In this document: one piece after another, positions 8,728-44,266 of the stretch
Layout: each line of letters opens with the position of its first letter
How positions within the stretch are numbered: position 1 is the stretch's first letter
Source: a virus
Lineage: Duplodnaviria; Caudoviricetes
Length of the DNA stretch: 64,000 nt
Virus record (IMG/VR): IMGVR_UViG_3300014031_000001
Coordinates: 54,653 to 118,652 of that record
Reading direction: 5' to 3' (one strand)
Position numbers and translations under genes: made by a program
Notes under the pieces: model-generated
The model's input: the letters and a program-made list of their open reading frames with translations, nothing else
Told to the model about the DNA's origin: nothing
Databases searched by the model: none

Positions 8728-8937
8728 TCAGAACGTCTGCATTGGCCGCGCGGCGCGGGCCATGTTGTAGTAGAGGCCCTTGTTTTCGGTACCAGCTTTG
8801 GCGCCCTTGGCGGCGGCGCCGAGCATGTCGGCGCCCGTGCCGATCGCACCGAGAGAGCCCACGACCTTGCCGAGGACGGTGCCGGCCGTGCCGAGCACGC
8901 CCGCCCTCTTTGAGAACCCCGCCCAAAATGGCGTCAT
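8728..8937 (-). CDS. Small protein with FWxGFxKxA leader
   Basis: MTPFWAGFSKRA then a Gly-zipper-like helix. Start overlaps the upstream stop codon (TGATG). Confidence 0.7.
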   Translation of the reverse strand: MTPFWAGFSKRAGVLGTAGTVLGKVVGSLGAIGTGADMLGAAAKGAKAGTENKGLYYNMARAARPMQTF

Positions 8938-9854
8938 CAGAGGGCCCGAATTTTCTGACCCATGATGTGCAGGCGGTCGTCGATCGTTTGGTAGCGCTCA
9001 CGGTGGAGATTCAAGGCGGCGCTGTAGCCGTGGTAGGTCTTGAGCGTGATGTAGAGCGGGTGCTCGCCGTTCACGACTTCGGCGGGCAGGAAGCCGCTGA
9101 TGAGCTCCTGGGGGGCCTTCTGGTCGGCGGTCTTCGTCAAGAAGAACTCGACCACCTGGTTGCCAAGCCGTGGCTCGACGAGGCCTTCCCCCTTGAGCAC
9201 GTGCGCTAGCTTGCCAAGCGCCGGGCGCGCCAGGTCGGCCATGCCGGCCGCCTTCGTCATGTGATAGACCGTGCCGAGAAGCGACGTGCGCTCGGGGCCG
9301 CTGCCGCCGGAGAGGACCACCTGGCGGGCCTCCTTGATGAAGGCGCGCTCGGCGGCCAGACAGGCCACCTCGGCCTTGTAGACGGCGTCGCCGGCGCGCT
9401 GCTTGTCGAAGGCGACCTTCTCGGAGCGCTGGCGCAGCTCGCGCTTGACGCCGGCCGTCTTGTCCATGAGTTCGGGCTCGACGCCGAACATCTCAAAGGG
9501 CGACGGGTTTTTGTCGCTGAAGACCGGGTCAGGCATCGCCATCGCGATCTTCTGCGAGCCGCCGTCGACCTGAAGGCCAGCGATCACCGCCGTGGCGTCA
9601 GCCAGTGGGAAGTGCGCGGCGTGGTACTTCGACTCGTCGTTGGCGTACTTGTGCTGGTGGATCAGCTTATTCGCTTCACCGGCCAACAGCTGCACTTGCT
9701 CGGGCGTCAGGTCTTCCGACTGCGCGATCTTGGTGAGGCTCGTCGTCGGCTCGGTCCCCTGCGTGAGGTAAGCGCTGGCGATCGATCCCGCCCACTCGCG
9801 GAAATGCTCCATAGAGAGCTTTTGCTCTGTGAAAGAGCTAGCGTCGAAAAACAT
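8937..9854 (-). CDS. Head-associated protein with KxA motifs
   Basis: TKIA, QKIA, DKTA, EKVA, TKAA, GKLA, TKTA. First gene of the head operon. Confidence 0.55.
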   Translation of the reverse strand: MFFDASSFTEQKLSMEHFREWAGSIASAYLTQGTEPTTSLTKIAQSEDLTPEQVQLLAGEANKLIHQHKYANDESKYHAAHFPLADATAVIAGLQVDGGSQKIAMAMPDPVFSDKNPSPFEMFGVEPELMDKTAGVKRELRQRSEKVAFDKQRAGDAVYKAEVACLAAERAFIKEARQVVLSGGSGPERTSLLGTVYHMTKAAGMADLARPALGKLAHVLKGEGLVEPRLGNQVVEFFLTKTADQKAPQELISGFLPAEVVNGEHPLYITLKTYHGYSAALNLHRERYQTIDDRLHIMGQKIRAL

Positions 9855-9980
9855 GCTGACGTTCCTCGAATGTCGGGTGATGTAGATTTGTCAAAGTATA
9901 GCCCCCCTTCATATAAGAGTCCAAGGATTTCAACCAACTTACGCCTCCCGCCGCTTGACTTTTCCGACTTCGCCAAACGC

Positions 9981-10008
9981 AAAAAGGCCGGCGAGGTGCC
10001 GGCCTTTC
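9981..10008. terminator. Hairpin, probable minus-strand terminator
   Basis: aaaaaggccggc-gaggt-gccggccttt. Confidence 0.5.
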
Positions 10009-10049
10009 GGGTGTTTGGTTTGACCCGTGATTAAATAGAAGGGCGCCGC

Positions 10050-10277
10050 CTACCCGGCGAGCGCCTTGGCGAAAGCCTGGCCGCCCCGGTGGGCCCACTT
10101 GGCGAGCACCCCGCGCAAAGAGGCCACGATGTGGGCGCAGAGCACCTGCTCGACTGTCGTTACGGCCGCCGCCGGGTCGGACGCGCCGTCGCGCAGCGCC
10201 CCCTCGAGCTTGCGCCGGGTCGTCGTCGAAAAGAGCGGTCCGTCGCGCTGTCCATCCATCTGCCGCACGTCACCCAT
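10050..10277 (-). CDS. Hypothetical protein
   Basis: ATG at 10277 with RBS aggagg; 75 aa. Confidence 0.45.
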   Translation of the reverse strand: MGDVRQMDGQRDGPLFSTTTRRKLEGALRDGASDPAAAVTTVEQVLCAHIVASLRGVLAKWAHRGGQAFAKALAG

Positions 10278-10501
10278 GGCCAACCTCCTGGCTGTGTAAT
10301 CCGACGTCACCATAGGAGCCGCGGCCCGCACGTGTCAACCGATCACCCCGGGGGCTGACATGTTCCAGTGCGAGATCTGCGAGGACCAGGTGTCAAAAGC
10401 AGGCACCCAGTGCACCTGTGGACATCTGACAATCGACCCGCAAAAACGAGTGACTGGGCTTTGTTTTCGACGAATCGCCGAAGCCGGACGGGCCGCAGGG
10501 T

Positions 10502-10509
10502 GGTATAAG
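10502..10509 (+). promoter_or_regulatory. GGTATAAG motif (candidate phage promoter)
   Basis: Exact octamer about 30 nt upstream of the HD nuclease start; one of 8 copies. Confidence 0.65.
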
Positions 10510-10540
10510 TCTTCCGCAATAAACACTGCGGAGGATCCTG

Positions 10541-11554: not shown

Positions 11555-11587
11555 ATCAACCTGGCACTGCCGGAAAAAGACGTGGAG

Positions 11588-11622
11588 GGCGCGGCCTAGG
11601 TCGCGCCTTTCGTTTTTTTTTC
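11588..11622 (+). terminator. Intrinsic terminator
   Basis: ggcgcggcc-ta-ggtcgcgcc followed by a long T tract. Confidence 0.65.
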
Positions 11623-11657
11623 TTGCGCGCTATAGTCTCTTTCCCCGGAGGAACACA

Positions 11658-12083: not shown

Positions 12084-12086
12084 CCC

Positions 12087-13423: not shown

Positions 13424-13432
13424 GCCCTTCTG

Positions 13433-13440
13433 GGTATAAG
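13433..13440 (+). promoter_or_regulatory. GGTATAAG motif
   Basis: Intergenic, about 40 nt upstream of small ORF 13480. Confidence 0.65.
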
Positions 13441-13479
13441 ACTGTTGGATAAAGTTGACAACCTATAGGGAGGTCCGAC

Positions 13480-13677: not shown

Positions 13678-13684
13678 CCAGGTA

Positions 13685-13712
13685 GCCCGGCCACAGGGCC
13701 GGGTTTCTTTTT
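13685..13712 (+). terminator. Intrinsic terminator
   Basis: gcccggcc-acag-ggccgggt followed by ttctttttt. Confidence 0.7.
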
Positions 13713-13722
13713 ACCAGTGCCT

Positions 13723-13730
13723 GGTATAAG
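13723..13730 (+). promoter_or_regulatory. GGTATAAG motif
   Basis: Directly after a terminator, about 38 nt upstream of the DNA polymerase ATG. Confidence 0.7.
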
Positions 13731-15627: not shown

Positions 15628-15631
15628 GGAG

Positions 15632-19565: not shown

Positions 19566-19763
19566 ATGCCTGCACCTAAAAAAGCGCGCTGCCGTATCCC
19601 CCTACAGCGCGAGGGGATCTGGATCCCCGAGGACGCCGAGGTCCTTTGGACGCCGAGTACGTGCGGCGGCGGCCGCGTCGTTGTCACCTTCGATGACGTC
19701 GACCATGTCATGGCCGACGTTGAGTTTTGCATGCACTTTTACACCACCCACGAGGCCGCCTGA
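19566..19763 (+). CDS. Hypothetical small protein
   Basis: 65 aa. TATAAT lies about 6 nt upstream, so the mRNA may be leaderless. Confidence 0.4.
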   Translation: MPAPKKARCRIPLQREGIWIPEDAEVLWTPSTCGGGRVVVTFDDVDHVMADVEFCMHFYTTHEAA

Positions 19764-20037
19764 TGGCAGCGTCTTGGACCGGGTTTGAGAAGTCGGCGGG
19801 CCTGATCGGGTGTTTTTTTAGAAACGGCGTGAGCGCATCCAGCCCGTAAGCGTCCTCGAGGGCGGCGCGGTCGAGCGTCTCGCGCTCGTCGGGCGCGGCC
19901 GACAGCACGAAATCGCCGAGCTCTTGCGTCGTCCCTTTCGGGTACTTCTGCATGATCAGCGCCTTCAGATGCTTCTCGTTTCTCTCGGCCAAACGCCGGC
20001 GGCGCGTCGCCTCAAAGAGGTTGCGCACGGTCGCCAT
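19708..20037 (-). CDS. Hypothetical protein
   Basis: 109 aa with protein-like composition. Confidence 0.5.
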   Translation of the reverse strand: MATVRNLFEATRRRRLAERNEKHLKALIMQKYPKGTTQELGDFVLSAAPDERETLDRAALEDAYGLDALTPFLKKHPIRPADFSNPVQDAAIRRPRGWCKSACKTQRRP

Positions 20038-21702: not shown

Positions 21703-24700
21703 CTAGTACATCGGCCCGCCCTCGATCTGGGTGTAGCGCCGCGACTTGCCGTGGAAGATGTCGGCCGCGAGCTTGCAAAAGAGCAAGCTGTGGAAAAAGT
21801 CATCAGGGTCCGAGGGCCGGTGGTCAAATTTAATCTCCCGGCGGAACTCGTTGTACTCCGTGTAGATCGACAAAATGTCCTTGGCATACGGCTCGAACTC
21901 TGCCCACTTCGGAAAACCGACGTGGCCGTTTTTCATGTCGTAGAAGAGCTCCGACATGAAAAGGTTGCGGTGCAAGTGGTAGCGCGTGCCGAGCGCGTCC
22001 CACTTGATGCGGTTTTTCAGCTTGTGCAGATACTGAAACTGCATGACGCGCTTCGGACCAAGCTTGCGCACGAGCACGTTGTTGAGGCCCCAGCCGTGGC
22101 CGTAGTCGACCCCGAGCACACGCACGCCTAGTCCGGCCGAGATGCGGCAGATGTCGTTGACGACGTGCTCGGGGTCAACCTCGCGGCCGACGTACTTCTT
22201 CACGAGCACGGTGCGAAACTTCCGCTGCGTCTCGTAGTAGCCGAGCGTGAGCACCGTGTAGGAGGCGTTACGGATCTTGCCGCTCGGGCTCTTCTCTGAG
22301 CCGTCGTTGCCCTCGCCCCAGTCGACGCCCCCGATCAGCACGCGGCTGCGCGCGTCGGCCAGATAAGGCGTCAGGTTGTTGGGGTCCCAGAGGGCGTAGT
22401 CGCCGCAGATCCCCATCAGCGCCGCTCGGCTAATCGGCTTTGACGCGGCGTCGTAGGAAAGCCCAAGCACCTCATTGGCGAACTGCCCGAAGGGGTAGTG
22501 GTCTCTCTTCCAAAGCAGCCGCGACCACTGCGACATGGTCGAGATGATCCAGGGCACCATGAGCTGCGGGATGCGGTAGCCGGCGATGGCCTTGCCGCCC
22601 GACAGCGACATCCACTGGCCTTTCGTCACGTCAAGCGGGCGCACGCACTTGGAGCAGACGGGGCCGGGCGGCAGGCGCCCCGACTCGTACCACTGCGTCG
22701 GCCCGATCGTCGTCTCGTCGAGCATGTTCCAGTGGCCGCAGCCGCATGGGACGAGCCACTCGTTTTGCGTCGAGCTCTGCCAGTAGATCTCGATCGGGTT
22801 GTCGAGGCTCTTTGGCGTCCCCGCCATGATCTCGATGGCGTCAGGAAAGTGCGACGTGCACTCGCGGATGACCGGGATCTCCGAGATGAGCATGTCCTGG
22901 AACTCGTCGAGCGCCAGCACGCGCGCCGAGATCCCGCGCGCTCTGTCGGCGCTGCGAAAGGCCGAACGCAGGAAGATGAAGGCGCCGTTGGTGAAGCCCT
23001 TCTCGAAGACCTGGTTACTGACGCCGGAGTCCTGCAGGTACTTCATGATCAGCGGCGACTTCTCGATCGCCGGCTTCAGCTTCTCGGACGAAAACTGCCG
23101 CGTCTGCGTGTGCGACGGCGACACGTAGAGGCACTTGTTGAAGGGCTTGACGGCGCTGATGGCGACGAGGTTGTTTGCGAGGAATGTTGTGTTGTGGTTG
23201 AGGATGAAGTCCGCGACAAAGGTCTCGGTCTCGGTCTGGATGCCCCAGGTGGGCTGCATGCCGAGGTCTTCGATGGTGACTATCTCGTCCCAGATGACGT
23301 CGGACTCAAGAATCGCCGCCAACGCGCCGCTCTCAAGCTCGACGTTCATCGCTGCGACTTTTTCATAGGTCGGGCAGTAGCTGCGGTTCACCCGCAATCC
23401 GGCCGACTGAAAGCCGTTGCGCTGCCAGTAAGTGCCGCGATCTTTTCTGGCCTGCAGAATGAACTCGTGGATTTCTTTTGGGAGGGTGTCGAGGTTGCTG
23501 TTGGCACGGCACGTCGACAGGGTGAAGGGCTTACCTGGAATAGGACCGAGCTCGCGGTGGAAACACGCAACAGCACGCCGCGTGATGACGCGAATATTGT
23601 AGGCGAGGCGGCCGCCGTTGCTTAGTTTGTTTTCGCGCTGGACCGTGACCACCCCAAACTTGCGCAAGAGGAGCCGCACCTGCCGCGCCAGCACCGGGCT
23701 CGTCGTGCAGTAGACGAGGTCTACTTTGGAGCTCGAAACATTTTTGCAGTGGCCGTCGGTGGCCCATAGGCCACGAAGAAGATCCCGCGTCGTCTCTTTG
23801 TCCCAACCAAAGACCTCGGCCGGGAGGTGCTTCTCGCGGGCGCAGGTGTTGGCGATGCCGCGGTCGCGAAACCAGACGGCAAGTGGCCCCTTTAGGCTAA
23901 ACGCGTAGCGCTTCGTGCCCGACCGCTCGTCGATCCAGGTGCGCGAGGGGCGGTCACCGGCGAGCTCGAGCAGACGGTCGGCCCAGGCGTTGACCTCGTC
24001 GCCCTTTTGCGTGAACCCGAAACTACTGCCGCCCGCCTTGTGCCGGTAGTAGTGGCCATCGCCCACCAGCAGCCCGAGAAGGGCCGCCCAGGAGAGGCGC
24101 GCCGTGCCGAAGGTCCCGACCGTGCGCAGGGCGGCGACGCGGTCTCCAGGCACCAGCCTGCCCGCCTCAACCCAGCCATCAAAGCGACGCAGTGGGTGAT
24201 TGAGGGTCACCTCGAGCGTCGACCCAAGCCGCGTCCTTAGGCGCACGCATCGCCGCGGCCCGTTGTCCTCGGAGGCGACGACGGTGTCGACCGCCTGGTG
24301 GCCGGCCGCATCGATGGCGATGACAGTGTCGCCGACGGTCATCTGGTCGATGGGCTTTTCGGAGCCATCCGACAAGGTGCACTGGCTAGACGCGACTAAA
24401 CATTTTTCGACCTGCCTGGCCGTCTTCAAGAGGATGCGCTGATCGGAGCGGTCGTAGATCGGCTCGAGGTAGCGGCGCCCCGTGAAGTCGAACTTCTTGC
24501 CGTCGAGATGGATCAGGTTGTGGACGAAGGCCGACTTGCGCGCGCGGATCAGTTTGCGCACCGTGCCGTCGTCGTTGAAGAGCTCGTTGATGCGGGCGGC
24601 GTGAAGAGCCGACGGCAGCTGCAGATCCTTCTCGTCGGTGTAGTCGTCGGCGTCGCGACCCTCGAGCTCGGCGAGCTCGTCGGGATCTAAATGGTCAGTG

Positions 24701-24732
24701 ATGACCATGCTGTTCACATTAGAGTCAGTCAA
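21703..24732 (-). CDS. terL: Terminase large subunit with intein
   Basis: Spliced Walker A 'LKTARQVEK|TT', 'RARGISARVLALDEFQD' Walker B, 'AGTP' coupling motif, 'GVDWG' nuclease, 'PDDFFHS'. Confidence 0.9.
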   Translation of the reverse strand: MTDSNVNSMVITDHLDPDELAELEGRDADDYTDEKDLQLPSALHAARINELFNDDGTVRKLIRARKSAFVHNLIHLDGKKFDFTGRRYLEPIYDRSDQRILLKTARQVEKCLVASSQCTLSDGSEKPIDQMTVGDTVIAIDAAGHQAVDTVVASEDNGPRRCVRLRTRLGSTLEVTLNHPLRRFDGWVEAGRLVPGDRVAALRTVGTFGTARLSWAALLGLLVGDGHYYRHKAGGSSFGFTQKGDEVNAWADRLLELAGDRPSRTWIDERSGTKRYAFSLKGPLAVWFRDRGIANTCAREKHLPAEVFGWDKETTRDLLRGLWATDGHCKNVSSSKVDLVYCTTSPVLARQVRLLLRKFGVVTVQRENKLSNGGRLAYNIRVITRRAVACFHRELGPIPGKPFTLSTCRANSNLDTLPKEIHEFILQARKDRGTYWQRNGFQSAGLRVNRSYCPTYEKVAAMNVELESGALAAILESDVIWDEIVTIEDLGMQPTWGIQTETETFVADFILNHNTTFLANNLVAISAVKPFNKCLYVSPSHTQTRQFSSEKLKPAIEKSPLIMKYLQDSGVSNQVFEKGFTNGAFIFLRSAFRSADRARGISARVLALDEFQDMLISEIPVIRECTSHFPDAIEIMAGTPKSLDNPIEIYWQSSTQNEWLVPCGCGHWNMLDETTIGPTQWYESGRLPPGPVCSKCVRPLDVTKGQWMSLSGGKAIAGYRIPQLMVPWIISTMSQWSRLLWKRDHYPFGQFANEVLGLSYDAASKPISRAALMGICGDYALWDPNNLTPYLADARSRVLIGGVDWGEGNDGSEKSPSGKIRNASYTVLTLGYYETQRKFRTVLVKKYVGREVDPEHVVNDICRISAGLGVRVLGVDYGHGWGLNNVLVRKLGPKRVMQFQYLHKLKNRIKWDALGTRYHLHRNLFMSELFYDMKNGHVGFPKWAEFEPYAKDILSIYTEYNEFRREIKFDHRPSDPDDFFHSLLFCKLAADIFHGKSRRYTQIEGGPMY
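23191..24402 (-). mobile_element. Intein (404 aa) with LAGLIDADG endonuclease in the terminase P-loop
   Basis: Starts CLVASSQC, TLNHP block B, LLGLLVGDG and LLRGLWATDG, ends ILNHN, +1 Thr. Confidence 0.92.
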
Positions 24733-26190: not shown

Positions 26191-26502
26191 TCACACGTGC
26201 GCCTTGCGGAAGAGCTGCTCCAGCAAGGTCTTGTTGCTTCCAACGAGGCGATCCACTTCACGTCCGTCTTTCAAAAGAAGGACCGTGGGCAGCGAAAACA
26301 CACTGTGCCGCGAGGGCTTCGCCGGGTCTTTTTCGAGGTTGATGACTTTTACTTTAACAGACGGGTACTTAAAAGACAGCTGTTTCACGCCGTCGCGCAT
26401 CCGCGTGCCGGCGTCGTCGGACGTCCAGTAGCAGATGATGACGTGCTTTTTAAAGGAGACGGGGGCGGCACTTTTGGCGAAGCCGTGCCAGAAGGGCTTC
26501 AA
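26191..26502 (-). CDS. Thioredoxin-fold protein lacking CxxC, with FWxGFxKxA leader
   Basis: TTG start overlapping the upstream TGA. MKPFWHGFAKSA; 'VKVINLEKDP...SVFSLPTVLLLKDGREVDRLVG'. Confidence 0.7.
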   Translation of the reverse strand: MKPFWHGFAKSAAPVSFKKHVIICYWTSDDAGTRMRDGVKQLSFKYPSVKVKVINLEKDPAKPSRHSVFSLPTVLLLKDGREVDRLVGSNKTLLEQLFRKAHV

Positions 26503-27014
26503 CCTAGGGGCTTCTTTCCCCGACGAGCCCTCCAAAAATCAATCCCGTCACTCTTCTGTTCGGCAGAAGGTTTGATCCGCGCGCCACTGTTTTCGAGGTG
26601 GGCATACATAGCCGTGGCCACGCCCTTTCTGCGAGCTGGTGCGCCCACGTCTACAGCGTGTGCTTCGAAAGCATGCGCACTGGGCTTGTAATGGAAGCCC
26701 GCCCGCCCGATCTCCGCCCCGTCGCGCGCTCTAGCCCGAATAACCCGTCCGCCGACGCCGGCCAACTCTTCACGTACGAAGAAATGTCCCGGGGCGCCTT
26801 TGAACGCGCGCCTTCCGTTGATTCGGTCGTTTAGGCTGAGCGCCGTAGACGAGTCTGGAAGCTTGGCTTTCAGGGAGACCTCTTTCACCATCTTATCGAA
26901 GAGGCCGGCTTTGACGTAGTCAGGGTCTGTCTTGCGCAGGAAGCGCTTCAGCGCGTTTGAGGCCAGCTTCTGCAGCTCGCCGCGCCTTTCAAACCCGGCC
27001 CAAAAGCTAGTCAC
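26499..27014 (-). CDS. GNAT-family acetyltransferase with FWxGF leader
   Basis: MTSFWAGFERRGELQKLA; acetyl-CoA motif A 'VDVGAPARRKGVATAMY'. Confidence 0.7.
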   Translation of the reverse strand: MTSFWAGFERRGELQKLASNALKRFLRKTDPDYVKAGLFDKMVKEVSLKAKLPDSSTALSLNDRINGRRAFKGAPGHFFVREELAGVGGRVIRARARDGAEIGRAGFHYKPSAHAFEAHAVDVGAPARRKGVATAMYAHLENSGARIKPSAEQKSDGIDFWRARRGKKPLG

Positions 27015-34684: not shown

Positions 34685-34731
34685 AAAAAAGCCCCGAGAG
34701 GGGCTAGGCCGCTAAGGCGGTCTCTTTTTTT
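34685..34731. terminator. Paired hairpins terminating convergent transcripts
   Basis: aaaaaagccc-cgaga-gggct, then aggccgc-taag-gcggtct followed by a T tract. Confidence 0.6.
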
Positions 34732-35377
34732 AGCTACGGAGCGTGCGCGCCGTGAGCCGGTTGAGCGCCGCCGAGGCCTGCTTGCCGAGCTCCATGTTGC
34801 CGGCTCCCGGGCTCGCCACCGCCGTTGGCGGTGGCGCTAGGCCAGCCGAAGGCGGCGCGCCGGCGGCAGGACCCGCAGGACCCGTCGACATCGTCTCGGC
34901 GGTCTGCGGCGCCATGGCCGGCTCGATGATGGTCTTCTTCTCGATGATGGTCTTGCGTTGGCCGCCAGCGCCAGCGGCCGGCGGAGGCATGAGCCCGGCC
35001 GAGGGGGCCGCGCCTTCTTGCGCCGCGGCGGCCGCTTCGGCCTGGGCGCCCTGGGCCTCCATGTTGGCCTGGAAGCCGTCGGGCGACTCGCTTGGCAAAG
35101 GGATCCCTTGGGCCATGGCGTTGGCGTCGTCCAAGACGGGGTTGCCCTGGGAGGTCGTGTCGCCGTCGGCGCTTGGCTGGGGCTGGCCGATGTCGCCGCC
35201 CTGCTCTTGCACCTGCGCGCGCATCGCCTCCTCGGCCTGTGCCTGCGGCGACTGGGTCACCTTACGGCCGGCGCCGGGCCCCATCAGGCTGTCCTGCATC
35301 GACGGCGTCTTCGCCGGCTCGGCGCCCTGCAGGTTGGCCCGGTCGTTGGCGGTCTTGTCGAAAAGGAACTTGCGCAC
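34730..35377 (-). CDS. Low-complexity Ala/Pro/Gln-rich virion protein with F..KTA leader
   Basis: GTG start with RBS ggggag; MRKFLFDKTA. Confidence 0.6.
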   Translation of the reverse strand: MRKFLFDKTANDRANLQGAEPAKTPSMQDSLMGPGAGRKVTQSPQAQAEEAMRAQVQEQGGDIGQPQPSADGDTTSQGNPVLDDANAMAQGIPLPSESPDGFQANMEAQGAQAEAAAAAQEGAAPSAGLMPPPAAGAGGQRKTIIEKKTIIEPAMAPQTAETMSTGPAGPAAGAPPSAGLAPPPTAVASPGAGNMELGKQASAALNRLTARTLRS

Positions 35378-35403: not shown

Positions 35404-38400
35404 TCAATATTTTCCGTCCTTGCCCTGTCCGAAGGTGGCTCCGTGTGCGAAGGCAGGGATCGGGTGCGTTCCGGCAAGGTCAGTTTTCCAGCCTTGTGCC
35501 GCGCCCTCGGTGATCGCCTTCGACAGGTTCTGGAAGCCCAAAGCCGCCATCCAGTTTTGCCGCATGAGCGGCACCGAGCCCATGCCCTTCATCAAGGGGG
35601 CATGCTTCAGCGGCTCGCGCCGGACCGAGATCTCTGCGTGTCCGTGCGATTTTAGAACTTTTGCGTCGCGCGCGTCCACCACGTGGCCCTTCTTCAAGTC
35701 CTCATAGTCGGCGTCGAGCTCGTAGCCGATGGCGTCTTCCGGCTTGGCCGTGAAGCCGAGGTTGGCGTTGTAGTGGTTGGCGACCGTGTAGCCGATGACG
35801 TCGCCCGGCAGGTGCGGGCTGTCCTTGGGGCTGTTGAGCACCTGGGTGAAGTTGCCGAGGCTGCGGACGACCGTCTCGAACATCTTGCGCTCGATGCGGA
35901 TGCCCTGGTCCTTGTAGGTCTTGTGGAGCTCGTCGACCAGGTACTCCTGGGCCGGGCGCATGCCCTTGAGCTTCACGAGGTCTTGGGGCTTCACGGCGCC
36001 GTCGGAAAGGACGTCGCCCTTGGTCACCTCGTCGCCGACCTTGACGGTGAGCTTGCGGCCGACGGGTACGTAGATTTTGTGGCTGCCGACGAAGACGTTG
36101 TGGCCGCCGCCGATGCCCTTATCGATGCGCTCCACCTTGCCGCCGACGGGCGTCAGGGGGGCGGCCCCTGGCAGGTCACCCGGCATCTTCAGAAGCTGGC
36201 CGATGCGCGCGTAGCCGCCAACGTCGGTGCCGGTGCCCGCAGCGCCCCCCGTGTGGAAGGTGCGCATGATCATCTGGACGAGCGGCTCCGAGATGGTCTG
36301 GCTCGCCTTGGCGCCAATGTTATCCCCGATGGCAGGCGCACCCCCGTGCTCATCGTGTCCAAAGCACTTGGCGCAAGTTCCTCGGGGCTGAAGGCATGTG
36401 AGAGGGGAGCGAACCTCGATTTTAGAAACGCCCCTCTTTTGAAGCGCACTGACCAGCTGCTGGTCGACAGGGGTATTACGCGCGACGCCGTCTTGATCGT
36501 GGGCCAGGTAGCGCCCCACTGCATCAGGACTGGAAATGCCGAGGGTAATACCCGCTTTAACGCCACAGTCCACCGCCGTGATGACGTTGTCTAGCGTGGT
36601 GGCCGAAATCGATTTCGAGAAGGCCCCGGGCTCACTTGTTTGGATGGCTCTGTCCATCATACCACGGCGCGCACCGTACATACTTGTCCAGTAGTCGCCG
36701 ATATTTAGCCCTTCTGAATAGGACTTTTTGATGGCGCGCGGGACGATCTTGCCGCGTGCGTCGGAGACGAAAAGCGGGGTCGCCATGATCTGGCGCAGCT
36801 GGGTCGGCTCGCCGCGGCCGCCGCCTTCGACCATGTCGAAAAGCGAGTTGCCCGTGCCGCGAAGCTTCGTCGCGAGCATGCGGTCCAAAAGCCCGACGGC
36901 GTCCTTGTTGATCTTGGTGAGGTCGGCCTCGGTCTTGGCCTTGGCGAGCTCCTTGTCGACGTGCGTCGTGATGAGGTCGCGGCTTTTGCTAAAGTCGTGC
37001 AAGTCGTCGAGCCCGAGCGAAAAGCCCTTCTCGTAGGAGTGCGTCTCGCCGGCGCTCTTGAGGGCCTGGAGGACTTTGGCGAAGTCGCCTGACGGCAGCT
37101 CTTTGGCCATACGGTTAAGCATGGCAGCCGTACCTTTTTTGTCGAGGACGGCGGTGACCTTGTACTTTTCGCCGACGATAGCGTCGAGCTTGGCGCGCCC
37201 TGCGGGGGTCTGCGACAGGTAGAAGATCCCCGTCTGCGCTTCCCAGGCGGGCGCCATCATCAGAGCGCCGCTGCCAGGCTGGAAGAGGTTGCGCGACGGC
37301 AGCATGCCCTCGGCTTCCTTGTTGGCCTCGTTGCTGATCGGCACGTGCACCGTCATGGTGTTATGCGTCAACAGTCCGTTCTGGATGCAGAAGATCTCGC
37401 CATCCGGCACGGTGAAGTCGAACATTACCTCGTGCCGTGGAACTTCAGTGATCGACGTCACCTCCTCCCAGAGCAGATCTTCGTTCAGGACGAGCTGAGC
37501 CCACTTCTCGAAAAGTCCTGAAGCCAACATGCCGTACGTGTGGAGAATATCTTTAGCGATGTGTCTCGAGATGAAGTGCGTTTTTTTCTTGAAGTGGTCA
37601 TGTAGATTGACTCTGCGTCCAGGAACCGCCTCTCGCCAGGCTGCAATCTTCGCGCGCAGCTCCTTGTTCGGGACCCGGAGCTCCTTCCCGATTTCTGCTA
37701 TTTCGTCAAACAGCGCAGCGCTGAAAGGAACGATGTCGTAGAGATTTTTACGTCGGCGCCCCGCTTTGACTTCGCAGGCTGTCTTCAGAAGCTCGGATTT
37801 ACGCCCCTCTTTCAGGGCCAGTCTGTGCATATCGTCTTTGACAACGCGCACTATTGCGAAGTCGCGGCAGCCCTTGTGCTCGCTGTCGCGGATATAGGCG
37901 CCTATCCCGACGCTAGCCATGATGAAGCGAAGCGCCTCAAGAAAGGGGCGGTTCTTCATCTCAATGCGGGCGAGCCAGTTGCCGAGCGCATCCTTGCCGA
38001 TGCTGCCTTCTGCCTGAAAGAGGCCCTGCACATAGGCAAGCCGTACGCTGTCGGGGCTTGAGACGATGCAGTCGGGAACTCGCTTGTCCTCGCACCGTGC
38101 CCCGCACTCGTCTGCGAACCAGGCAGCGATCGTTTTGTTGTAGATGCGGGCAATACAGCCGGCATGCTTGGCCGTGCTCTGTCGTTTTGTGTCCGAGTTG
38201 AAGACTGCCTTGATTGTCCGACAGCTCCGGTCGAGGAGGGCGCGCTCGGTATCGCAGATAGTGACGGTGTTGTCTGCGCTACACCCATCGCCAGCATAGT
38301 GGCCCAGGAGCCAAGCGAAATCTTCATCTACGACGTGCGACTTTTCCCCGATTTTTACGCTCTGTATGTCCTGCCCGAGCCTCGGCCGTGCTTTTGGGAG

Positions 38401-41400
38401 CAAGACCCCCGCGGGCATAACTTCTGTTTTGACGCACTGAAGGTTGAACTTCTCGTCGATGTAGCTGAAGTTGTGGTGCTCGGTAGCGACGACGCGCGTG
38501 CCGGTGTGCGTCTCGAGCTGGTAGCACGGCCCGTGCGATGTATGCACGGTAAGTCTGCGCACGTCGGCCCAGATGGGGGTGCTGTTGACCATAGAGATCG
38601 TCTGCAGGCGGCCTGGCGAGAGTTCGTAAATAGCTGTGTAGCCCCCGGCGTCTGCCACCATGTCCTCCACGCTCTTGCCGACAAGGAGGGGGAATAGCTC
38701 CCCCGCGCGGAGACTTAGGTACACCCACTGTCCGTCGTCTGTCAACAGGCGAGTGTGGCACAACGTGCTGATATCGCAGCTGTCTCCATTGAAGTCAGCG
38801 TTGAAGCCTTTGATTACCAACGGCGGAATCTTCAGCGCACGCCCCGTCGTGATCTTCGGCTTGAACGCCATGATCGAAAACTTGTGGAGCGACGGCGCGC
38901 GGTTTAGAAGGACGTGGCGGTCTTTCATGACGCGGTCAAGCGCCGTGCGTGCGAGCTTCGTGCGCCCCTTCACCTCTTCGGTGGCGGCCAGCGGGCTTTT
39001 GCCGTGGCCCTTCAGCTCGCGGATGACGAACGGCTCGAAGAGCTTCCAGGCCATCTCTTCGGGCATCGCCATCTCGTCGATGCCAAGGTCAGGCTCGGGG
39101 ATGATCGTGCCGCGGCCGACAAGATCCTGCTTTTTGGAGAGCAGCTTCGAGATGAAGTAGCCCTCTTTCGGCTGCCCACCGTCGGCGCCGCCCTTGATGG
39201 CGGCGATGAAGCCGTCACGCGTGCGACCCTTGACGTTGAGGTTCGTGAGCCCCGAGACGGCCGACACGTGGTCGTAGAGCTCCTTGCGGATGTCGGCCTT
39301 CTCGGTCTCCGGCAAGAGCTTGGCGCCCGGCAGCTGGGCCACGTAGTTGACGACGCCCGTGTTGTGGTAGAGGACGTTGATGTCGCTCGTCGTGACGTTG
39401 CCGTCGGGCAGCGGGTAGAGCGGGCGAAACTGCGGCGGGATCACCGGCAGCTTCCTGCGGATGTAGGCGTCTTCCGGGCGCAGGTTGAGCCGCACCAGGT
39501 TCTTTAGGATCTTCAACTTCTTGTTGATGTCGTCGAGCTTGTCGGCGCGCACCGTCTTGGCTTTTTCCTCGAGACGCGTGATGGCGCCCGCGACGTCGAC
39601 GCCCTTCAGGATCGACTCGATCGCCTCGCCCGAGGTGAGGCCCACGCCCGTCTCGTTGAAGGTCTTGGTCTTGGGGTCCAAGAAGAGCTTGCCCGCCATG
39701 ATCTTGTCGTAGCGGCTGCCGAGGTCGGTGATCTTCTTGACGGCGTCTTCGAAGACGGGGTTCACGACGGCGTGCGCCAGGTCCAGGTGGGACCACTTGT
39801 CGCCCTGGAAGCCGCCGAGCTTTTGGTGATCGAAGAAGCCACCCTTGACCGGCACGAAGTCTTTGGCGCGGAAAAACTGCGGGTCCTTGATCGCCATGAC
39901 CGAGATCTTCTCGACGTGCTTATCAGTGAGCGGCCCGAGCGTCAGCTCCGTGCCGTTCTTCTCGACGTCGACGCCCGCAGCCTTCAGGTAGTTCAGAAAC
40001 TTGGTGTAGGCGAACGTCTGGCGCGGCGCCGGCACCGGGTCGCCGACCTTGAGGGCCCGCCAGAACTCCTCGTTCTGGTCGCTCTTGTAGGTGGCCATCT
40101 CGCGCAGGTTGTGGCGCGCGCCGTGGGCCAGCATGGCGTTCATCGTGAGCACGTCGAGGGCCTTGGCCCCCTCGGCGCCGCCGGCCTTCAGCGGCTGGTG
40201 GTTGCCGTCGTAGGGGTGGCCGCTGCCGCCCTGGCGCACCGAGTAGTTGTGGGTGCCCTGCTTGTAGAGCTTCAGGATGTAGGGGTTGCCGACGTGGACC
40301 TTGCCGAGGCTCTTGCCCGTCGCGGCGTCGAAGAGCTCCTCTTTGTCGAGAACCCCCGACTTCTTGAGCTTCTGGCGCGTCGTGTCGAGGTAGTTCTCGC
40401 CTGAGAAGTTGTCGACGACGTGGGGCTTGCCGTCCTTCAGCGCGGCCTTGCCGGCGGCCGACTCGTAGATCTGGCCGATGTTGATCCGGCTGATGACGCC
40501 GTGGGGGTTCAGCAACATATGGACGGGGTTGCCCGCCTTGTCCTTCGGCGCCTCGCTGTCGGGGATGATCTTGGTGATGATCCCCTTGTTGCCGTTGCGG
40601 CCCGCGATCTTGTCGCCGATGCGCGCGCGTTCTTCGGTCTTCACGTAGACCAGGATCTTGTCTTTGCGCTTTTGGACGTCCATGACGTAGCCGGTGTCTT
40701 CGTAGTGCCAGTAGACGGAGACGTCGCGGGGCCTTTCCGACAGGGCCTTGTTGATGACGGCGATGACCTGGCTTGGCGGGCGCTGCTTGAGCGCCGCGAC
40801 GAGGATCGTGCCCTGCGTGACCTTCGAGCCCTTCTTGATGACGCCGTCTTCGTCCAAAAGCTGGGCGTTCGCCGGGGTCAGCTGGCTCGGGTAGGTGGCG
40901 CGAAACTTCGCCAGGTTGAGCTGGATCGTGACGTCGCGGTCGATCGCTTCCTTGTGGACGTGCTCGCTTGTGAGCTGGTCGGCCCCCGAGTTGGTGATGA
41001 CGACGCCGTCTTCGAAGTTGAGGCCCTTGTAGGGCAGGTAGGCGACGCGCATGTTGGTGCCGAGCGCGAGCGTGCCGTTTTTGCTGAAGTTGCTATCGGC
41101 GAGCAGGTCGCCCTTGGCCACCTTGTCGCCGACTTTGACCTTCACCTCGTGGTTGAGAAAACTTTTCCGGTTGAGCGTGAAGTTGTTGTATAGGTTCACC
41201 TGCTTGTCGCCTGACGGTGTCGCCAGCACGAGAAAGTCGGGGGTCACCTTTTTTACCGTGCCGCTGTCGGGCGCCATCGCCGCGACCGAGCCGCCGATCA
41301 CCTCCTCCATCGAAGCCCCGGGGGTCGCGCCGACTTGGACGAGAGGCGCCTCGCGATGCTTCAGGCTGATCGCCTGCTCCATCTGCTTGGCGGCCATCAT

Positions 41401-42858
41401 CGCCCGGTTGCCCTGGTTGGAGGCGAGAAAGGGGATGAGGTTGGTCGACCACGAGAAGAGCGCCGACGGCGCCGGTGTGAAAAAATCCACGTCCTTGCGC
41501 TTCACCCGGATCGTCTCGCCGCGGTGCATGGCGTCGATGACGTCGCCCTTTTGCCCAGGCAGCGCGACCTTCTTGTCCCAGGCGGCCCGCGCCGTCAGGA
41601 AGTGGTCTTTGCCGTCTTGGTCCTTCACCGCCATCTTCAGGTCTTTGCCGTCCTTGCGGACACCGATCGGCAGGTGCAGGTTGGCACCTATCTTTTTGCT
41701 TTCGGGAGTATGGATCGGATCAAGAAGACCATAGTGCGTCGGATGAATCTGACGCATCTCCGGCGTAATCGCGTGCTCAGAGCCAATGCCGCCGGCGCCC
41801 ATGATGGTCGTAGCGTAGGCACCAGTAAGCATCTCAAGAGGGTTGGTCTGCTCTGGTGTTGCCGACTTGTCGTCTTGGGTGAAAAAACTCTCGACGGTGG
41901 AGCTAAAAGACCCAGGGTTAAGAATCTGCGAAATCTTCGTTCGCTTGGGGTTGTTGAGGCCCCGCTGGATCTTATAGCCGAGAGACCGAGTATTTTTTTC
42001 AAGGCGTTCCCCGATAAAATCTTCCACCGAGTGGATGTCCTTGAACATCAAGGAATCGCGGTCCACGGGCTCTTTTTTACCCATGTGGACGTCGTGAAGA
42101 TTTTTCGAGGCGGCAAGCAGCATCGGCCCGTCGACCTTGTCGAAGGCCTTGCCGAGCACAAGCTCGGTCGTCTCTTCGCCGAGCTTCGTCTGCGAGAGGT
42201 AGTCTTTCAGCTGGCTGCCGGGCTTGACGCCAAAAGCTGCCGCGGCCTTGGCGATAGCGCGCGGGTCGTTGCTGCGGTTGGCGGCCTCGATGTCGGTGCC
42301 CCAGGTACGCGCGATAAGCCCGGGGCTGACGCCCAGGTAGGTGAGCACCGGGTAGAGCGGCACCTTGCCGGTGCCGCCGGCGATGTTGGTCATGTAGAAG
42401 ATGCCGGACTCTTCAGCGAACGTCAGGTCGAAGTTCTTGCCCTTCGCCAGGTTCACCTGGGTCTTGAGCTGGCCGTTCTGACGGCGCAGCGTGTAGACGC
42501 CGGGCTTAAGCCGCAGCTGATTGTGGACCTGGTACTCGTTGCCCTTGACGATGTAGCTCATGCGCGCCGTCAGTTTCGGTAGCGTGAAAAGCCGCACCTT
42601 CGTCGCGCGGTCCAGCACCGTGCTCGTGGCGTTGTCTTTTAAAGTGACGCTCGCGTAGACGTTGACGCCCCAGGTGCCCTCGTCATTTTTCGTCTTCGCC
42701 TGGTCGACGTAGTCGTGCGCGCTCGACGTGTCCTCGATAGTGACGCCGTCAAGGCTCAGCGTGCGCGTGCGGCCGACAACAGGGAAGACGCGGCCAATGG
42801 CCAGCGTCGCGGCCTTCTTGATGTCTTCGAACTGCTGGTCGATTCCGAAATTTCGCAT
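35404..42858 (-). CDS. DNA-directed RNA polymerase, fused beta-beta' single polypeptide, with intein
   Basis: Beta motifs: HTPESKKIG, NRAMMAAKQMEQA, GDKIAGRNGNKG, LNPHGVISRINIGQ. Beta' motifs in the same ORF: LPVIPPQFRP, LLNRAPSLH, NADFNGD|TM, bridge helix ARRGMMDRAIQTSEPG, trigger loop EPLVQMIMRTFHTGG. Confidence 0.95.
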   Translation of the reverse strand: MRNFGIDQQFEDIKKAATLAIGRVFPVVGRTRTLSLDGVTIEDTSSAHDYVDQAKTKNDEGTWGVNVYASVTLKDNATSTVLDRATKVRLFTLPKLTARMSYIVKGNEYQVHNQLRLKPGVYTLRRQNGQLKTQVNLAKGKNFDLTFAEESGIFYMTNIAGGTGKVPLYPVLTYLGVSPGLIARTWGTDIEAANRSNDPRAIAKAAAAFGVKPGSQLKDYLSQTKLGEETTELVLGKAFDKVDGPMLLAASKNLHDVHMGKKEPVDRDSLMFKDIHSVEDFIGERLEKNTRSLGYKIQRGLNNPKRTKISQILNPGSFSSTVESFFTQDDKSATPEQTNPLEMLTGAYATTIMGAGGIGSEHAITPEMRQIHPTHYGLLDPIHTPESKKIGANLHLPIGVRKDGKDLKMAVKDQDGKDHFLTARAAWDKKVALPGQKGDVIDAMHRGETIRVKRKDVDFFTPAPSALFSWSTNLIPFLASNQGNRAMMAAKQMEQAISLKHREAPLVQVGATPGASMEEVIGGSVAAMAPDSGTVKKVTPDFLVLATPSGDKQVNLYNNFTLNRKSFLNHEVKVKVGDKVAKGDLLADSNFSKNGTLALGTNMRVAYLPYKGLNFEDGVVITNSGADQLTSEHVHKEAIDRDVTIQLNLAKFRATYPSQLTPANAQLLDEDGVIKKGSKVTQGTILVAALKQRPPSQVIAVINKALSERPRDVSVYWHYEDTGYVMDVQKRKDKILVYVKTEERARIGDKIAGRNGNKGIITKIIPDSEAPKDKAGNPVHMLLNPHGVISRINIGQIYESAAGKAALKDGKPHVVDNFSGENYLDTTRQKLKKSGVLDKEELFDAATGKSLGKVHVGNPYILKLYKQGTHNYSVRQGGSGHPYDGNHQPLKAGGAEGAKALDVLTMNAMLAHGARHNLREMATYKSDQNEEFWRALKVGDPVPAPRQTFAYTKFLNYLKAAGVDVEKNGTELTLGPLTDKHVEKISVMAIKDPQFFRAKDFVPVKGGFFDHQKLGGFQGDKWSHLDLAHAVVNPVFEDAVKKITDLGSRYDKIMAGKLFLDPKTKTFNETGVGLTSGEAIESILKGVDVAGAITRLEEKAKTVRADKLDDINKKLKILKNLVRLNLRPEDAYIRRKLPVIPPQFRPLYPLPDGNVTTSDINVLYHNTGVVNYVAQLPGAKLLPETEKADIRKELYDHVSAVSGLTNLNVKGRTRDGFIAAIKGGADGGQPKEGYFISKLLSKKQDLVGRGTIIPEPDLGIDEMAMPEEMAWKLFEPFVIRELKGHGKSPLAATEEVKGRTKLARTALDRVMKDRHVLLNRAPSLHKFSIMAFKPKITTGRALKIPPLVIKGFNADFNGDSCDISTLCHTRLLTDDGQWVYLSLRAGELFPLLVGKSVEDMVADAGGYTAIYELSPGRLQTISMVNSTPIWADVRRLTVHTSHGPCYQLETHTGTRVVATEHHNFSYIDEKFNLQCVKTEVMPAGVLLPKARPRLGQDIQSVKIGEKSHVVDEDFAWLLGHYAGDGCSADNTVTICDTERALLDRSCRTIKAVFNSDTKRQSTAKHAGCIARIYNKTIAAWFADECGARCEDKRVPDCIVSSPDSVRLAYVQGLFQAEGSIGKDALGNWLARIEMKNRPFLEALRFIMASVGIGAYIRDSEHKGCRDFAIVRVVKDDMHRLALKEGRKSELLKTACEVKAGRRRKNLYDIVPFSAALFDEIAEIGKELRVPNKELRAKIAAWREAVPGRRVNLHDHFKKKTHFISRHIAKDILHTYGMLASGLFEKWAQLVLNEDLLWEEVTSITEVPRHEVMFDFTVPDGEIFCIQNGLLTHNTMTVHVPISNEANKEAEGMLPSRNLFQPGSGALMMAPAWEAQTGIFYLSQTPAGRAKLDAIVGEKYKVTAVLDKKGTAAMLNRMAKELPSGDFAKVLQALKSAGETHSYEKGFSLGLDDLHDFSKSRDLITTHVDKELAKAKTEADLTKINKDAVGLLDRMLATKLRGTGNSLFDMVEGGGRGEPTQLRQIMATPLFVSDARGKIVPRAIKKSYSEGLNIGDYWTSMYGARRGMMDRAIQTSEPGAFSKSISATTLDNVITAVDCGVKAGITLGISSPDAVGRYLAHDQDGVARNTPVDQQLVSALQKRGVSKIEVRSPLTCLQPRGTCAKCFGHDEHGGAPAIGDNIGAKASQTISEPLVQMIMRTFHTGGAAGTGTDVGGYARIGQLLKMPGDLPGAAPLTPVGGKVERIDKGIGGGHNVFVGSHKIYVPVGRKLTVKVGDEVTKGDVLSDGAVKPQDLVKLKGMRPAQEYLVDELHKTYKDQGIRIERKMFETVVRSLGNFTQVLNSPKDSPHLPGDVIGYTVANHYNANLGFTAKPEDAIGYELDADYEDLKKGHVVDARDAKVLKSHGHAEISVRREPLKHAPLMKGMGSVPLMRQNWMAALGFQNLSKAITEGAAQGWKTDLAGTHPIPAFAHGATFGQGKDGKY
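37360..38781 (-). mobile_element. Intein (474 aa) with LAGLIDADG endonuclease inserted directly after the RNAP catalytic motif
   Basis: Starts SCDISTLC (Ser1), TEHHNF block B, LLGHYAGDG and VQGLFQAEG, ends LLTHN, +1 Thr. Removal restores NADFNGD-TMTVHVP. Confidence 0.92.
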
Positions 42859-42864
42859 ACGCCG

Positions 42865-42872
42865 GGTATAAG
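42865..42872 (+). promoter_or_regulatory. GGTATAAG motif abutting the divergent RNAP start codon
   Basis: About 40 nt upstream of small ORF 42914. Confidence 0.65.
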
Positions 42873-42913
42873 CCTTGTGAGTAAGAACGCTAAACGTTCA
42901 CCGAGGAGGCTGC

Positions 42914-43069
42914 GTGATCGAACTAGAGGAAATCGCTTTGAAAATCATACTAACGCCTAACGACATTGTAGCACAACGAAAACCAGGGCTTGAGCAGGGA
43001 GGCGACGATCGTGGAGCAGCAAAACCAGGTGCCACCAAGCCGCGCGCAAAGTGCCGTCCAAGTCCGTAA
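42914..43069 (+). CDS. Small hypothetical protein (51 aa)
   Basis: GTG with strong RBS gaggagg; below the ORF-track length cutoff. Confidence 0.4.
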   Translation: MIELEEIALKIILTPNDIVAQRKPGLEQGGDDRGAAKPGATKPRAKCRPSP

Positions 43070-43364
43070 AATGGGGGCGCTGGCACAGGTATTTGGACAG
43101 TTTTGGACGGCGGCCTTTTGGCGCGAGTTCGTTGCCAAGATCGTGCAGACCCTGGTCGAAGCGTCGCTCATTGCGTTCGGTGAGGGGATCGTCGAGTACG
43201 TGCGCGTGAAGCGCGGCGTGACGGCGCCACGCTCAGTGGCAGGCGTTGCGGCATCGGCCTTCCACGGCGGGCCACCGCCCGGACCGTCCTACGGCAGCAA
43301 CTATGCGCCCGCGCACAACAGCTTTTCTACTGACCGCACGGCCTTTGGCTTTCCGTCGCGATGA
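43011..43364 (+). CDS. Hypothetical protein with amphipathic helices
   Basis: GTG with RBS gggagg; stop overlaps the next ATG. Confidence 0.55.
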   Translation: MEQQNQVPPSRAQSAVQVRKMGALAQVFGQFWTAAFWREFVAKIVQTLVEASLIAFGEGIVEYVRVKRGVTAPRSVAGVAASAFHGGPPPGPSYGSNYAPAHNSFSTDRTAFGFPSR

Positions 43365-43693
43365 CGGAGCTGGACAGCTATATCGCTTGTCCCAAGTTCG
43401 GGGGCTATAGGACGGCCCCCGCTTGCATCGTTCTCGACCGCTACCGCATCTGCCGTCGCAAGTGCACGAGCCTTGAGCGGTATCTTAAAGATCACCCCGA
43501 AGGGGCAAAGGAGGCGGAAGACGCCGCGAAGCACAAGAGCCCCGCACTGATAAAGGTGAGCCACCACGCCGGACAAAGTTTGCCGGACGCCGCGCTGCGC
43601 TGCAGCGTGTGCCTCTACCAGGCGCGAAGCGAGCGTGGCCTGAAGACGCATCTGACACGCAGTCACAAGAGAAAGACGATGCCCCGCATGTAG
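43361..43693 (+). CDS. Zinc-finger protein (N-terminal Cys cluster + C2H2 finger)
   Basis: 'CSVCLYQARSERGLKTHLTRSH'. Confidence 0.7.
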   Translation: MTELDSYIACPKFGGYRTAPACIVLDRYRICRRKCTSLERYLKDHPEGAKEAEDAAKHKSPALIKVSHHAGQSLPDAALRCSVCLYQARSERGLKTHLTRSHKRKTMPRM

Positions 43694-43714
43694 GCGGGGC
43701 ATCGTCTTTTTTTT
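43672..43714. terminator. Bidirectional intrinsic terminator
   Basis: aaagacgatgccccgc-atgtag-gcggggcatcgtcttt followed by a T tract. Confidence 0.8.
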
Positions 43715-43910
43715 AGCGCCCCATGGCCCGGCTAATAGACGCACTGATATTGCCGCCGAGGCTGCCGGTGTCGGCCGGCGCGGGCGGCGGCGGTGGGGGC
43801 GGAGCAGCCTTTGAGCCGCCACCGAAGGCGCCTGAGATGGCACTCGCTGCGGCCTGCTGGCCGCTGTCCCAGGCCCGCTTTTCAAAGCCTCTCCAAAACG
43901 GCGTCGTCAT
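43713..43910 (-). CDS. Small protein with FWxGFxKxA leader
   Basis: MTTPFWRGFEKRA; poly-Pro linker; ATGA overlap with the upstream gene. Confidence 0.7.
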   Translation of the reverse strand: MTTPFWRGFEKRAWDSGQQAAASAISGAFGGGSKAAPPPPPPPAPADTGSLGGNISASISRAMGR

Positions 43911-44266
43911 TCGAACCCCCTGCTCATCTGCGAGGGCGGCGGCGCGGCGTCTTGGCGCCCCGGCTCCTCGAGGCTGGTGATTTTATTGGCGCCGGCGGCC
44001 AGCGCGCCGGCGCCGAGCAGGCCGAAGCCGACGGCCTTTTTGGCACGAAAGCCGGGGCTCGCCGCCTCGTTGCGGTAGCGGTTGACCTGCTGCTTCACGC
44101 GCCCAAGCAATCCCGGGGCGTTGAAGGCGCCGGGGTTGCTGCGGCGTGCCGTAGCCAGCCGCTGCACGGCCGCGAGGCGGCGCAGGGGCGCGCGGATCCC
44201 CGCCATGACGTTGCCGGCGGCAAGCTTTTCGAGAAAGCCCTTCATAAAAGAGTCCGTTCTTCCCAT
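43907..44266 (-). CDS. Basic protein with FxxGFxxKxA leader and hydrophobic segment
   Basis: MGRTDSFMKGFLEKLAA...'AVGFGLLGAGALAAGA'. Confidence 0.65.
   Translation of the reverse strand: MGRTDSFMKGFLEKLAAGNVMAGIRAPLRRLAAVQRLATARRSNPGAFNAPGLLGRVKQQVNRYRNEAASPGFRAKKAVGFGLLGAGALAAGANKITSLEEPGRQDAAPPPSQMSRGFE

Follow-up and report, generated by a model that had tools for sequence, protein, structure and literature searches.

A short peptide with the pattern FWxGF-EKxA recurs at the ends of otherwise unrelated proteins encoded in a 64,000-nucleotide stretch of viral DNA (positions 54,653 to 118,652 of IMG/VR record IMGVR_UViG_3300014031_000001; hereafter the window), and we propose that it is a cleavable head-targeting tag, resembling the capsid-targeting sequence (CTS) of phage T4 in action and not related to it by descent, a reading to which we assign a probability of roughly 55%. 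The record is a single-contig virus of 118,652 bp (62% G+C, CheckV completeness 81%) from a soil metagenome assembly, of which the window is the right-hand 64 kb, and its gene content is that of a contractile-tailed phage. A preliminary description of the window had pointed to five minus-strand open reading frames (ORFs) that begin with nearly the same peptide and had likened this leader to the T4 signal; all five were confirmed, starts and N-termini included, and the T4 comparison stands as an analogy, homology being absent. The five ORFs are:

8728..8937, minus strand: 69-residue tagged protein, N-terminal FWxGF-xKxA ahead of a small Gly/Ala-rich basic body (ATG start, 24 bits)

26191..26502, minus strand: 103-residue tagged protein, thioredoxin-fold body without CxxC (TTG start)

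26499..27014, minus strand: 171-residue tagged protein, possible GNAT (GTG start, Shine-Dalgarno-like sequence ahead)

43713..43910, minus strand: 65-residue tagged protein, Pro/Gly/Ala-rich body (ATG start, 25.6 bits)

43907..44266, minus strand: 119-residue protein with the degenerate tag FMxGF-L-E-K-L-A and a basic body (ATG start)

Three weaker variants named alongside them are also present, and what these have in common with the tag is mainly its K-x-A end:

7605..8717, minus strand: 370-residue conserved head-module protein, tag-like N-terminus with aromatics followed by E-K-L-A

34730..35377, minus strand: 215-residue protein, weak variant sharing mainly a K-T-A end

56564..57346, minus strand: 260-residue protein, weak variant with a Q-K-M-A-G end at residue 13

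The 370-residue protein also has a conserved P-F-[FM]-x-G-F near its C-terminus, and its N-terminal peptide is kept in 4 relatives. Three of the five main ORFs overlap the upstream stop codon, which suggests that they may be translationally coupled.

Across the six frames of the whole genome, FWxGF occurred at 11 sites, compared to none in 30 shuffles and about 0.04 expected from amino-acid composition. Nine of these sites lay within a few residues of a start codon, and the remaining two stood 9 and 13 residues ahead of a stop codon, in both cases in a protein that is tagged at its N-terminus as well (a NUDIX hydrolase and a 98-residue protein). Looser FL/FM/FF variants contributed 4 extra sites, 3 of them N-terminal and 1 near the C-terminus of the 370-residue protein. 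A scoring matrix derived from relatives only returned 10 genome sites at or above 16 bits, every one beside a start codon (10 shuffles gave 0-2 matches at a lower cut-off of 6 bits), and it revealed no tag inside any large protein of the source genome. Because the codons for F, G, K and A vary between copies, the tag is conserved as protein and not as DNA, and on this ground we rejected a DNA repeat or regulatory element. Beyond the window, the genome has seven further tagged genes, of which six are minus-strand genes upstream and one is a plus-strand gene. Overall, 9 of the 11 FWxGF sites are on the minus strand, amid head and tail genes. The proposed restriction to the N-termini of late genes was borne out as far as the tag keeps almost exclusively to the structural-gene strand; it failed in that copies also occur at C-termini, between domains and in one replication-module gene.

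The tag consists of two parts, the aromatic core FWxGF and a K-x-A unit, which separates this core from the protein body. In 80 distinct N-terminal copies, where F, W, G and F are invariant by construction as they formed the search pattern, the core was followed by E in 56, K in 77, R, Q or K in 67 and A in 71, then mostly by A, S or G, and the start methionine preceded the first F by three residues in 49. At C-termini or between domains, E-K-x-A precedes the core instead. Accordingly, the K-x-A unit was downstream of the core in 79 of 88 N-terminal tags (upstream in 6) and upstream in 8 of 9 C-terminal tags (downstream in 3), with Fisher p values of 3e-4 and 2e-7 for this difference in orientation; among 12 copies without a nearby start codon, it was found upstream in 8 and downstream in 9. 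In an AlphaFold2 model of the doubly tagged NUDIX protein, the core domain reached a predicted local distance difference test (pLDDT) score of 82-96, and residues 1-11 and 154-175, which comprise both tags, remained below 50. The model portrays the tags as flexible appendages, as expected of a linear motif that becomes ordered only when bound to its partner.

The second half of the tag is also a code of the head proteins. The relevant genes are:

5..934, minus strand: major capsid protein, with a conserved Q-K-T-A-A at residues 26-30

1513..2373, minus strand: 286-residue helical, scaffold-like protein, in whose orthologues a degenerate tag, E-K-x-A ahead of F-[LF]-x-G-F, forms the N-terminus

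2383..4363, minus strand: three acidic head-core proteins of 182, 246 and 188 residues, with up to six K-x-A sites each

4388..7591, minus strand: 1067-residue candidate head-maturation protease, with an HK97-family-like serine protease domain at the N-terminus, which an intein interrupts, and a long C-terminal part

Within nine head-module proteins, [EDQT]-K-x-A-[ASG] was observed 20 times against 1.9 expected (z score 12.9), compared to 34 against 6.8 in all late proteins and 2 against 3.9 in early proteins. The reversed motif was not enriched and did not occur in the head module at all. The head modules of five relatives showed the same enrichment (for example, 18 against 1.6 expected), and no such head-type sites were present in the relatives' sheath, tube and neck proteins. 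Several sites fall near N-termini: at residue 26 of the capsid protein, 28 of the candidate protease, 4 of the SNF2 helicase and 3 of a 664-residue protein, and also in the three core proteins. The sites of the acidic core proteins are invariant among orthologues; in the 246-residue protein, which has a mean column identity of 42%, no more than 17 columns are invariant, and these include the K and A of two sites. The code extends to the closest cultured relative, Salmonella phage Arash, which is distant (capsid protein 32% identical): among 25 Arash proteins examined, 12 of 13 sites fell in the head-module genes gp220-gp225 and one in gp228; the portal, helicase, polymerase and tail proteins had no site. 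Cleavage sites of T4 gp21 and the A/S/G-x-E sites of phiKZ-like phages define an established pattern for head-protease motifs (PMC5694885). K-x-A matches this pattern: it is oriented, it keeps to prohead proteins, scaffold-like proteins contain it repeatedly, and it tends to stand near N-termini. The preliminary view that the tag ends in the phage's own K-x-A site therefore gained a head-specific and direction-specific motif, consistent with K-x-A being the cutting site of a head-maturation protease, as we infer from the sequence. Separately, one of the only two head-type E-K-x-A-[ASG] sites in early proteins belongs to an SSB-like early protein (genome 32647-33066, plus strand; L001:2647-3066), which lies outside the window and adjoins the plus-strand tagged gene.

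The bodies behind the tag are diverse. After removal of the tag, BLAST clustering of about 100 distinct tagged proteins yielded 63 body families, so that the idea of a portable module on unrelated bodies was upheld; they include a NUDIX hydrolase, a thioredoxin fold, SNF2-type helicases and many small proteins. Tagged proteins had a median length of 92 residues and 78% were net positive (mean +6.5), compared to 42% of the source genome's small proteins, and a membrane-spanning-like segment was found in only 6% of the bodies. In being small and basic they resemble the internal proteins of T4. Identity between clade members is 50-85% for the core structural genes, and several tagged small genes lack any homologue in relatives (as does the 69-residue protein at 8728-8937), so that tagged genes undergo fast turnover in the slots between conserved genes. 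The best-defined enzyme is:

L002:1377-1904, outside the window: tagged NUDIX hydrolase of 175 residues (Pfam NUDIX above cut-off, E 4.5e-16)

Its Nudix box (G-x5-E-x7-R-E-U-x-E-E-x-G-U) is intact in the orthologue alignment. The orthologues carry the tag at the N-terminus, at the C-terminus or between domains, and 7 of 7 keep at least one copy. The NUDIX region of the 175-residue protein also matches phrog_15528, annotated as portal protein (E 2.5e-11); NUDIX domains may thus be fused to portal proteins in other phages, which fits a packaged role. Two body assignments made from the letters alone fared differently. The thioredoxin fold of the 103-residue protein was substantiated by PDB thioredoxins (E 5.7e-8, aligned from residue 18), there is no Cys pair at the CGPC position, and tagged orthologues are present in L030 and L033. 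The GNAT assignment of the 171-residue protein came to no more than a match to Acetyltransf_1 below the curated cut-off (E 0.019), and no PDB match was obtained. The tagged SNF2-type helicase weakly matches a DarB-like antirestriction family in PHROGs (E 4e-5). We also observed a recurring domain of about 90 residues with a conserved E-H-T and D-H-L signature (L012:13531-14520, L039:3405-4211 and L054), which exists as a stand-alone tagged protein or fused between NUDIX and tag.

The tag is widespread among relatives. A capsid protein search of IMG/VR returned 17 loci, 16 with a capsid protein 79-85% identical and one with 48%, and nearly all of the longer loci were tagged. Five relatives rated complete (82-167 kb) contained 7-14 FWxGF each, nearly all on one strand, compared to 0-2 matches of a reversed control pattern. 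A degenerate DNA pattern of the full tag, searched in 2.9 million viral contigs, matched 44 stretches, and many contigs had more than one of them. The same pattern in 596 Gb of prokaryote genomes gave 34 single matches, about the chance number and none in an N-terminal context. Chance-level matches in prokaryotes together with many copies in relatives argue that the motif belongs to one clade of uncultured phages, to which it appears confined; a host or prophage origin was rejected, the 34 genome matches being at chance level and out of frame or not N-terminal. A literature search for the tag motif found nothing relevant. The relative with the 48% identical capsid protein, L018, has no FWxGF. 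In L018:4678-8473, small ORFs in the same slots start with a related peptide of greater length, in which hydrophobic-x-G-F is followed by about five residues and K-x-A/S. This suggests a lineage-specific version of the tag, a pattern that fits the expectation for a tag co-evolving with its receptor and, like the portal annotation of the NUDIX match, a packaged role. As a side observation, the five relatives G001-G005, with CheckV completeness of 100% at 82-167 kb, have capsid proteins 80-84% identical to that of the source phage; this means that the completeness calls are wrong or that a single capsid protein can serve genomes of widely differing size.

The proposed cutting at K-x-A implies a protease, and the 1067-residue protein at 4388-7591 is suggestive of an HK97-like head-maturation protease. 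It is a homologue of Arash gp222, a virion protein, and belongs to a family of at least 189 metagenome proteins, the intein-free relatives being about 670 residues long. Its first 220 residues are highly conserved, with H100, H101 and S152-M-G invariant, and in hhalign comparisons S152 aligned with the catalytic Ser of HK97 gp4 (Ser114) and T4 gp21 (Ser140). Inteins favour sites beside catalytic residues, and the intein of the source phage interrupts the protein two residues downstream of S152. The candidate domain is furthermore bracketed by an invariant K-T-A (29-31) and K-V-A (222-224), as would be expected for an enzyme that trims itself. Many metagenome homologues carry an intein as well. 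Other assignments were tried and dropped. The 1067-residue protein is not the portal, which lies at 44454-48023 (Arash gp204 match). The 286-residue protein (1513..2373) was rejected as protease, its AlphaFold2 model being helical and scaffold-like, with no Foldseek match and no sequence-profile match in the PDB, and so were the 246-, 182-, 188-, 159-, 305- and 370-residue proteins, which show no conserved Ser/His pattern. In the ESM Atlas, two proteins matched only unnamed viral clusters.

An indirect connection to virions is provided by the helicase. In the relatives L020, L042 and L061, the tag stands directly ahead of a helicase core that is 38% identical to Arash gp217 (E 1e-101), and the helicase of the source genome has a degenerate tag at the same position. 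Liquid chromatography-tandem mass spectrometry (LC-MS/MS) of purified Arash virions detected gp217 as an abundant protein, with 38 unique peptides, together with RNA polymerase subunits, among 116 proteins in total (PMC10585845).

The direct observations are the motif, its modular use on unrelated bodies, the rules for its position and a K-x-A code specific to the head; from them we infer a model for the binding, cleavage, packaging and ejection of tagged cargo. The FWxGF core would act as a short disordered docking peptide that binds a common partner in the prohead during assembly, which would be the scaffold and core proteins or else the capsid shell on its inner side, and docking would carry the attached protein into the prohead. 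The head-maturation protease would then cut after the Ala of K-x-A, the same enzyme presumably trimming the capsid protein and itself and degrading the acidic core proteins. Once assembly is complete and the tag removed, the mostly small and basic cargo would stay in the head with the DNA and would probably be delivered into the host. A broader formulation, for which we would put the chances slightly below even, is that a soil and freshwater phage lineage uses one nine-residue, position-independent label with protease sites at its flank, along with an Ala-cutting head protease, to load at least 60 fast-changing families (NUDIX, SNF2 helicase, thioredoxin-fold and many small basic proteins) into the virion.

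The model has precedents. Later accounts (PMC5694885 and PMC9024508, which cite Mullaney & Black 1996) report that the prohead protease gp21 removes the CTS of T4 internal proteins; T4 propeptides measure 10-20 residues. Like the tag described here, the T4 CTS is a short N-terminal peptide common to unrelated small basic head proteins, and it ends in a motif that recurs in capsid and scaffold proteins as a site of the head protease, the role predicted here for K-x-A. However, the sequences are unrelated, and the predicted cut is after Ala (K-x-A) here and after Glu in T4. Each genome has about 12 tagged proteins, and the clade has at least 63 body families, compared to three internal proteins in T4; the tag described here also occurs C-terminally and between domains; and the five clade genomes gave no match to the gp21 family (Peptidase_S77), the candidate here being S78-like. 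In phage P1, DarB has an N-terminal 30-residue capsid-targeting signal that also directs a reporter into the head (PMC9024508). Both cases place an N-terminal signal on a large helicase-type enzyme, an anti-restriction protein in P1 and an SNF2-type helicase here, whereas the P1 signal is not a sharply conserved motif that recurs on many proteins, nor is it known to be flanked by a protease code. The phiKZ-like giant phages (for example, SPN3US gp245) use an A/S/G-x-E cleavage code and propeptides (PMC5694885, PMC10052503). They share with our proposal the processing of many head and ejection proteins at one short motif and a protease that cuts itself, and they have an RNA polymerase in the virion, as in the lineage studied here; they differ in the motif and the residue ahead of the cut, and their long propeptides lack a common address peptide. 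Finally, encapsulin cargo-loading peptides are likewise short, Gly-containing, disordered terminal peptides that, at either terminus, bring unrelated cargo to an HK97-fold shell, but they are uncleaved and of other sequence. Moreover, the present case is a tailed phage with terminase, portal and sheath, and the K-x-A unit separates the tag from the body.

Several findings weigh against a cleavable head-targeting tag. The 98-residue tagged gene, which accounts for two FWxGF sites by carrying one at each end, is on the plus strand in the replication module, and a mini-ORF with a tag variant also lies on the plus strand among replication genes:

19763..19852, plus strand: 29-codon ORF with the variant SWxGF-E-K-S-A, in which S replaces the first F, found with the scoring matrix

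This ORF may represent a micro-protein or what is left of a tagged gene since lost. Statistically, the protease assignment is weak: against 135 diverse HK97-family (S78) proteases, the hhalign match over 69 columns, covering the Ser motif and a later conserved motif, reached a P of only 0.0044, and that of the N-terminal motif, which follows the same order along both proteins, 0.0025 (reversed controls, P 0.11 and 0.36). The catalytic His is ambiguous among H100, H101 and H123. S77, S78, ClpP and S49 models, applied in six frames to the source genome and four complete relatives, gave no match, and in particular the Pfam S78 model did not match the 1067-residue candidate; no protease emerged from Pfam and PHROGs scans of about 60 late proteins, and a PDB profile search with the candidate family found nothing. 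With regard to Arash, its genome has no FWxGF, and its virion list may, according to its authors, include carried-over abundant enzymes (PMC10585845). Several of its K-x-A proteins have 100% peptide coverage, which does not prove that they are uncut and lends no support to cleavage. Both the presence of tagged proteins in virions and their cutting after K-x-A are predictions from sequence.

These points bear on three main rivals: an uncleaved docking peptide, a processing propeptide without address function, and a motif for a target outside the virion. The first, which we consider unlikely and nonetheless the strongest of the rivals, regards the tag as a permanent docking peptide for a virion component and K-x-A as part of the binding helix or as a spacer. 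In its favour, the tag is used at either terminus, like the encapsulin peptides, the five clade genomes gave no match to a prohead-protease family, and the Arash K-x-A head proteins have full peptide coverage. It leaves unexplained why K-x-A faces the body and has decayed on the free side of C-terminal tags, why the acidic core proteins have a 10-fold excess of bare K-x-A, and why the motif brackets the candidate protease domain.

Less probable still is that the tag serves processing or latency, FWxGF aiding the cut as an extended recognition element or keeping the protein inactive until cut, with head entry achieved otherwise or absent. The constant proximity of tag and K-x-A unit and the enzymatic nature of several bodies are compatible with this idea. 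However, most bodies are small and non-enzymatic, many K-x-A sites have no neighbouring FWxGF, and a head protease is normally active only inside proheads, so its substrates must arrive there anyway.

We give even less credence to a linear motif that gathers accessory proteins at an extra-virion target, for example the membrane or a hub protein of the host, or the RNA polymerase or replication machinery of the phage itself. One tagged gene does lie in the replication module, some bodies are Gly-zipper-like or hydrophobic (25% weakly hydrophobic), and a membrane interface could accommodate the aromatic core; against this stand the low share of bodies with a membrane-spanning-like segment (6%), the invariant W, G, F, E, K and A, which point to a specific protein pocket, the second half of the tag being a motif found only in head proteins, and the location of tagged genes within head and tail operons. 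A leader for a modifying enzyme, in the manner of ribosomally synthesized and post-translationally modified peptides, is very improbable, as a radical-SAM gene is absent from the source genome, the neighbours of tagged genes included no modifying enzyme, and some tags are C-terminal or belong to large folded enzymes.

If the cleavable head-targeting tag is real, the virion cargo of a whole uncultured phage lineage could be predicted from a nine-residue motif. Injected proteins usually escape annotation, and the tagged set represents a candidate list of early-acting or counter-defence proteins. The T4 principle of head loading would be extended to a larger modular scale, to either terminus and to a cut after Ala. 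Furthermore, tag and site together would offer a compact handle for packaging foreign proteins into phage heads, which is open to test.

The surroundings of the tagged genes complete the picture of the source phage. A nucleotide search had no match among GenBank phages, and in a sequencing-run search the sequence was present only in the source soil metagenome, with no RNA run listed. The tail sheath gene is situated just upstream of the window. Further late genes are:

21703-24717: large terminase with intein

35404-42858, minus strand: 2484-residue protein, whose C-terminal 600 residues match the Arash virion RNA polymerase beta-prime (27% identity, E 5e-65)

44454..48023, minus strand: portal protein of 1189 residues with intein, 30% identical to the Arash gp204 portal (E 2e-60)

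The 2484-residue protein, which lies among tagged genes, is likely a single-chain virion RNA polymerase. Inteins with LAGLIDADG endonuclease reside in three essential late genes, those for the candidate protease, the large terminase and the portal. In the tail/baseplate region, a C92-family permuted papain-like amidase (50149-50805, minus strand, E 3.8e-19) is probably a virion-associated cell-wall hydrolase. Toward the end of the window (55928-63733, minus strand), consecutive small proteins of 82, 314, 138, 180, 83 and 330 residues have signal-peptide, lipoprotein-like or membrane-spanning N-termini; they are untagged and may form a lysis or envelope-acting cassette.

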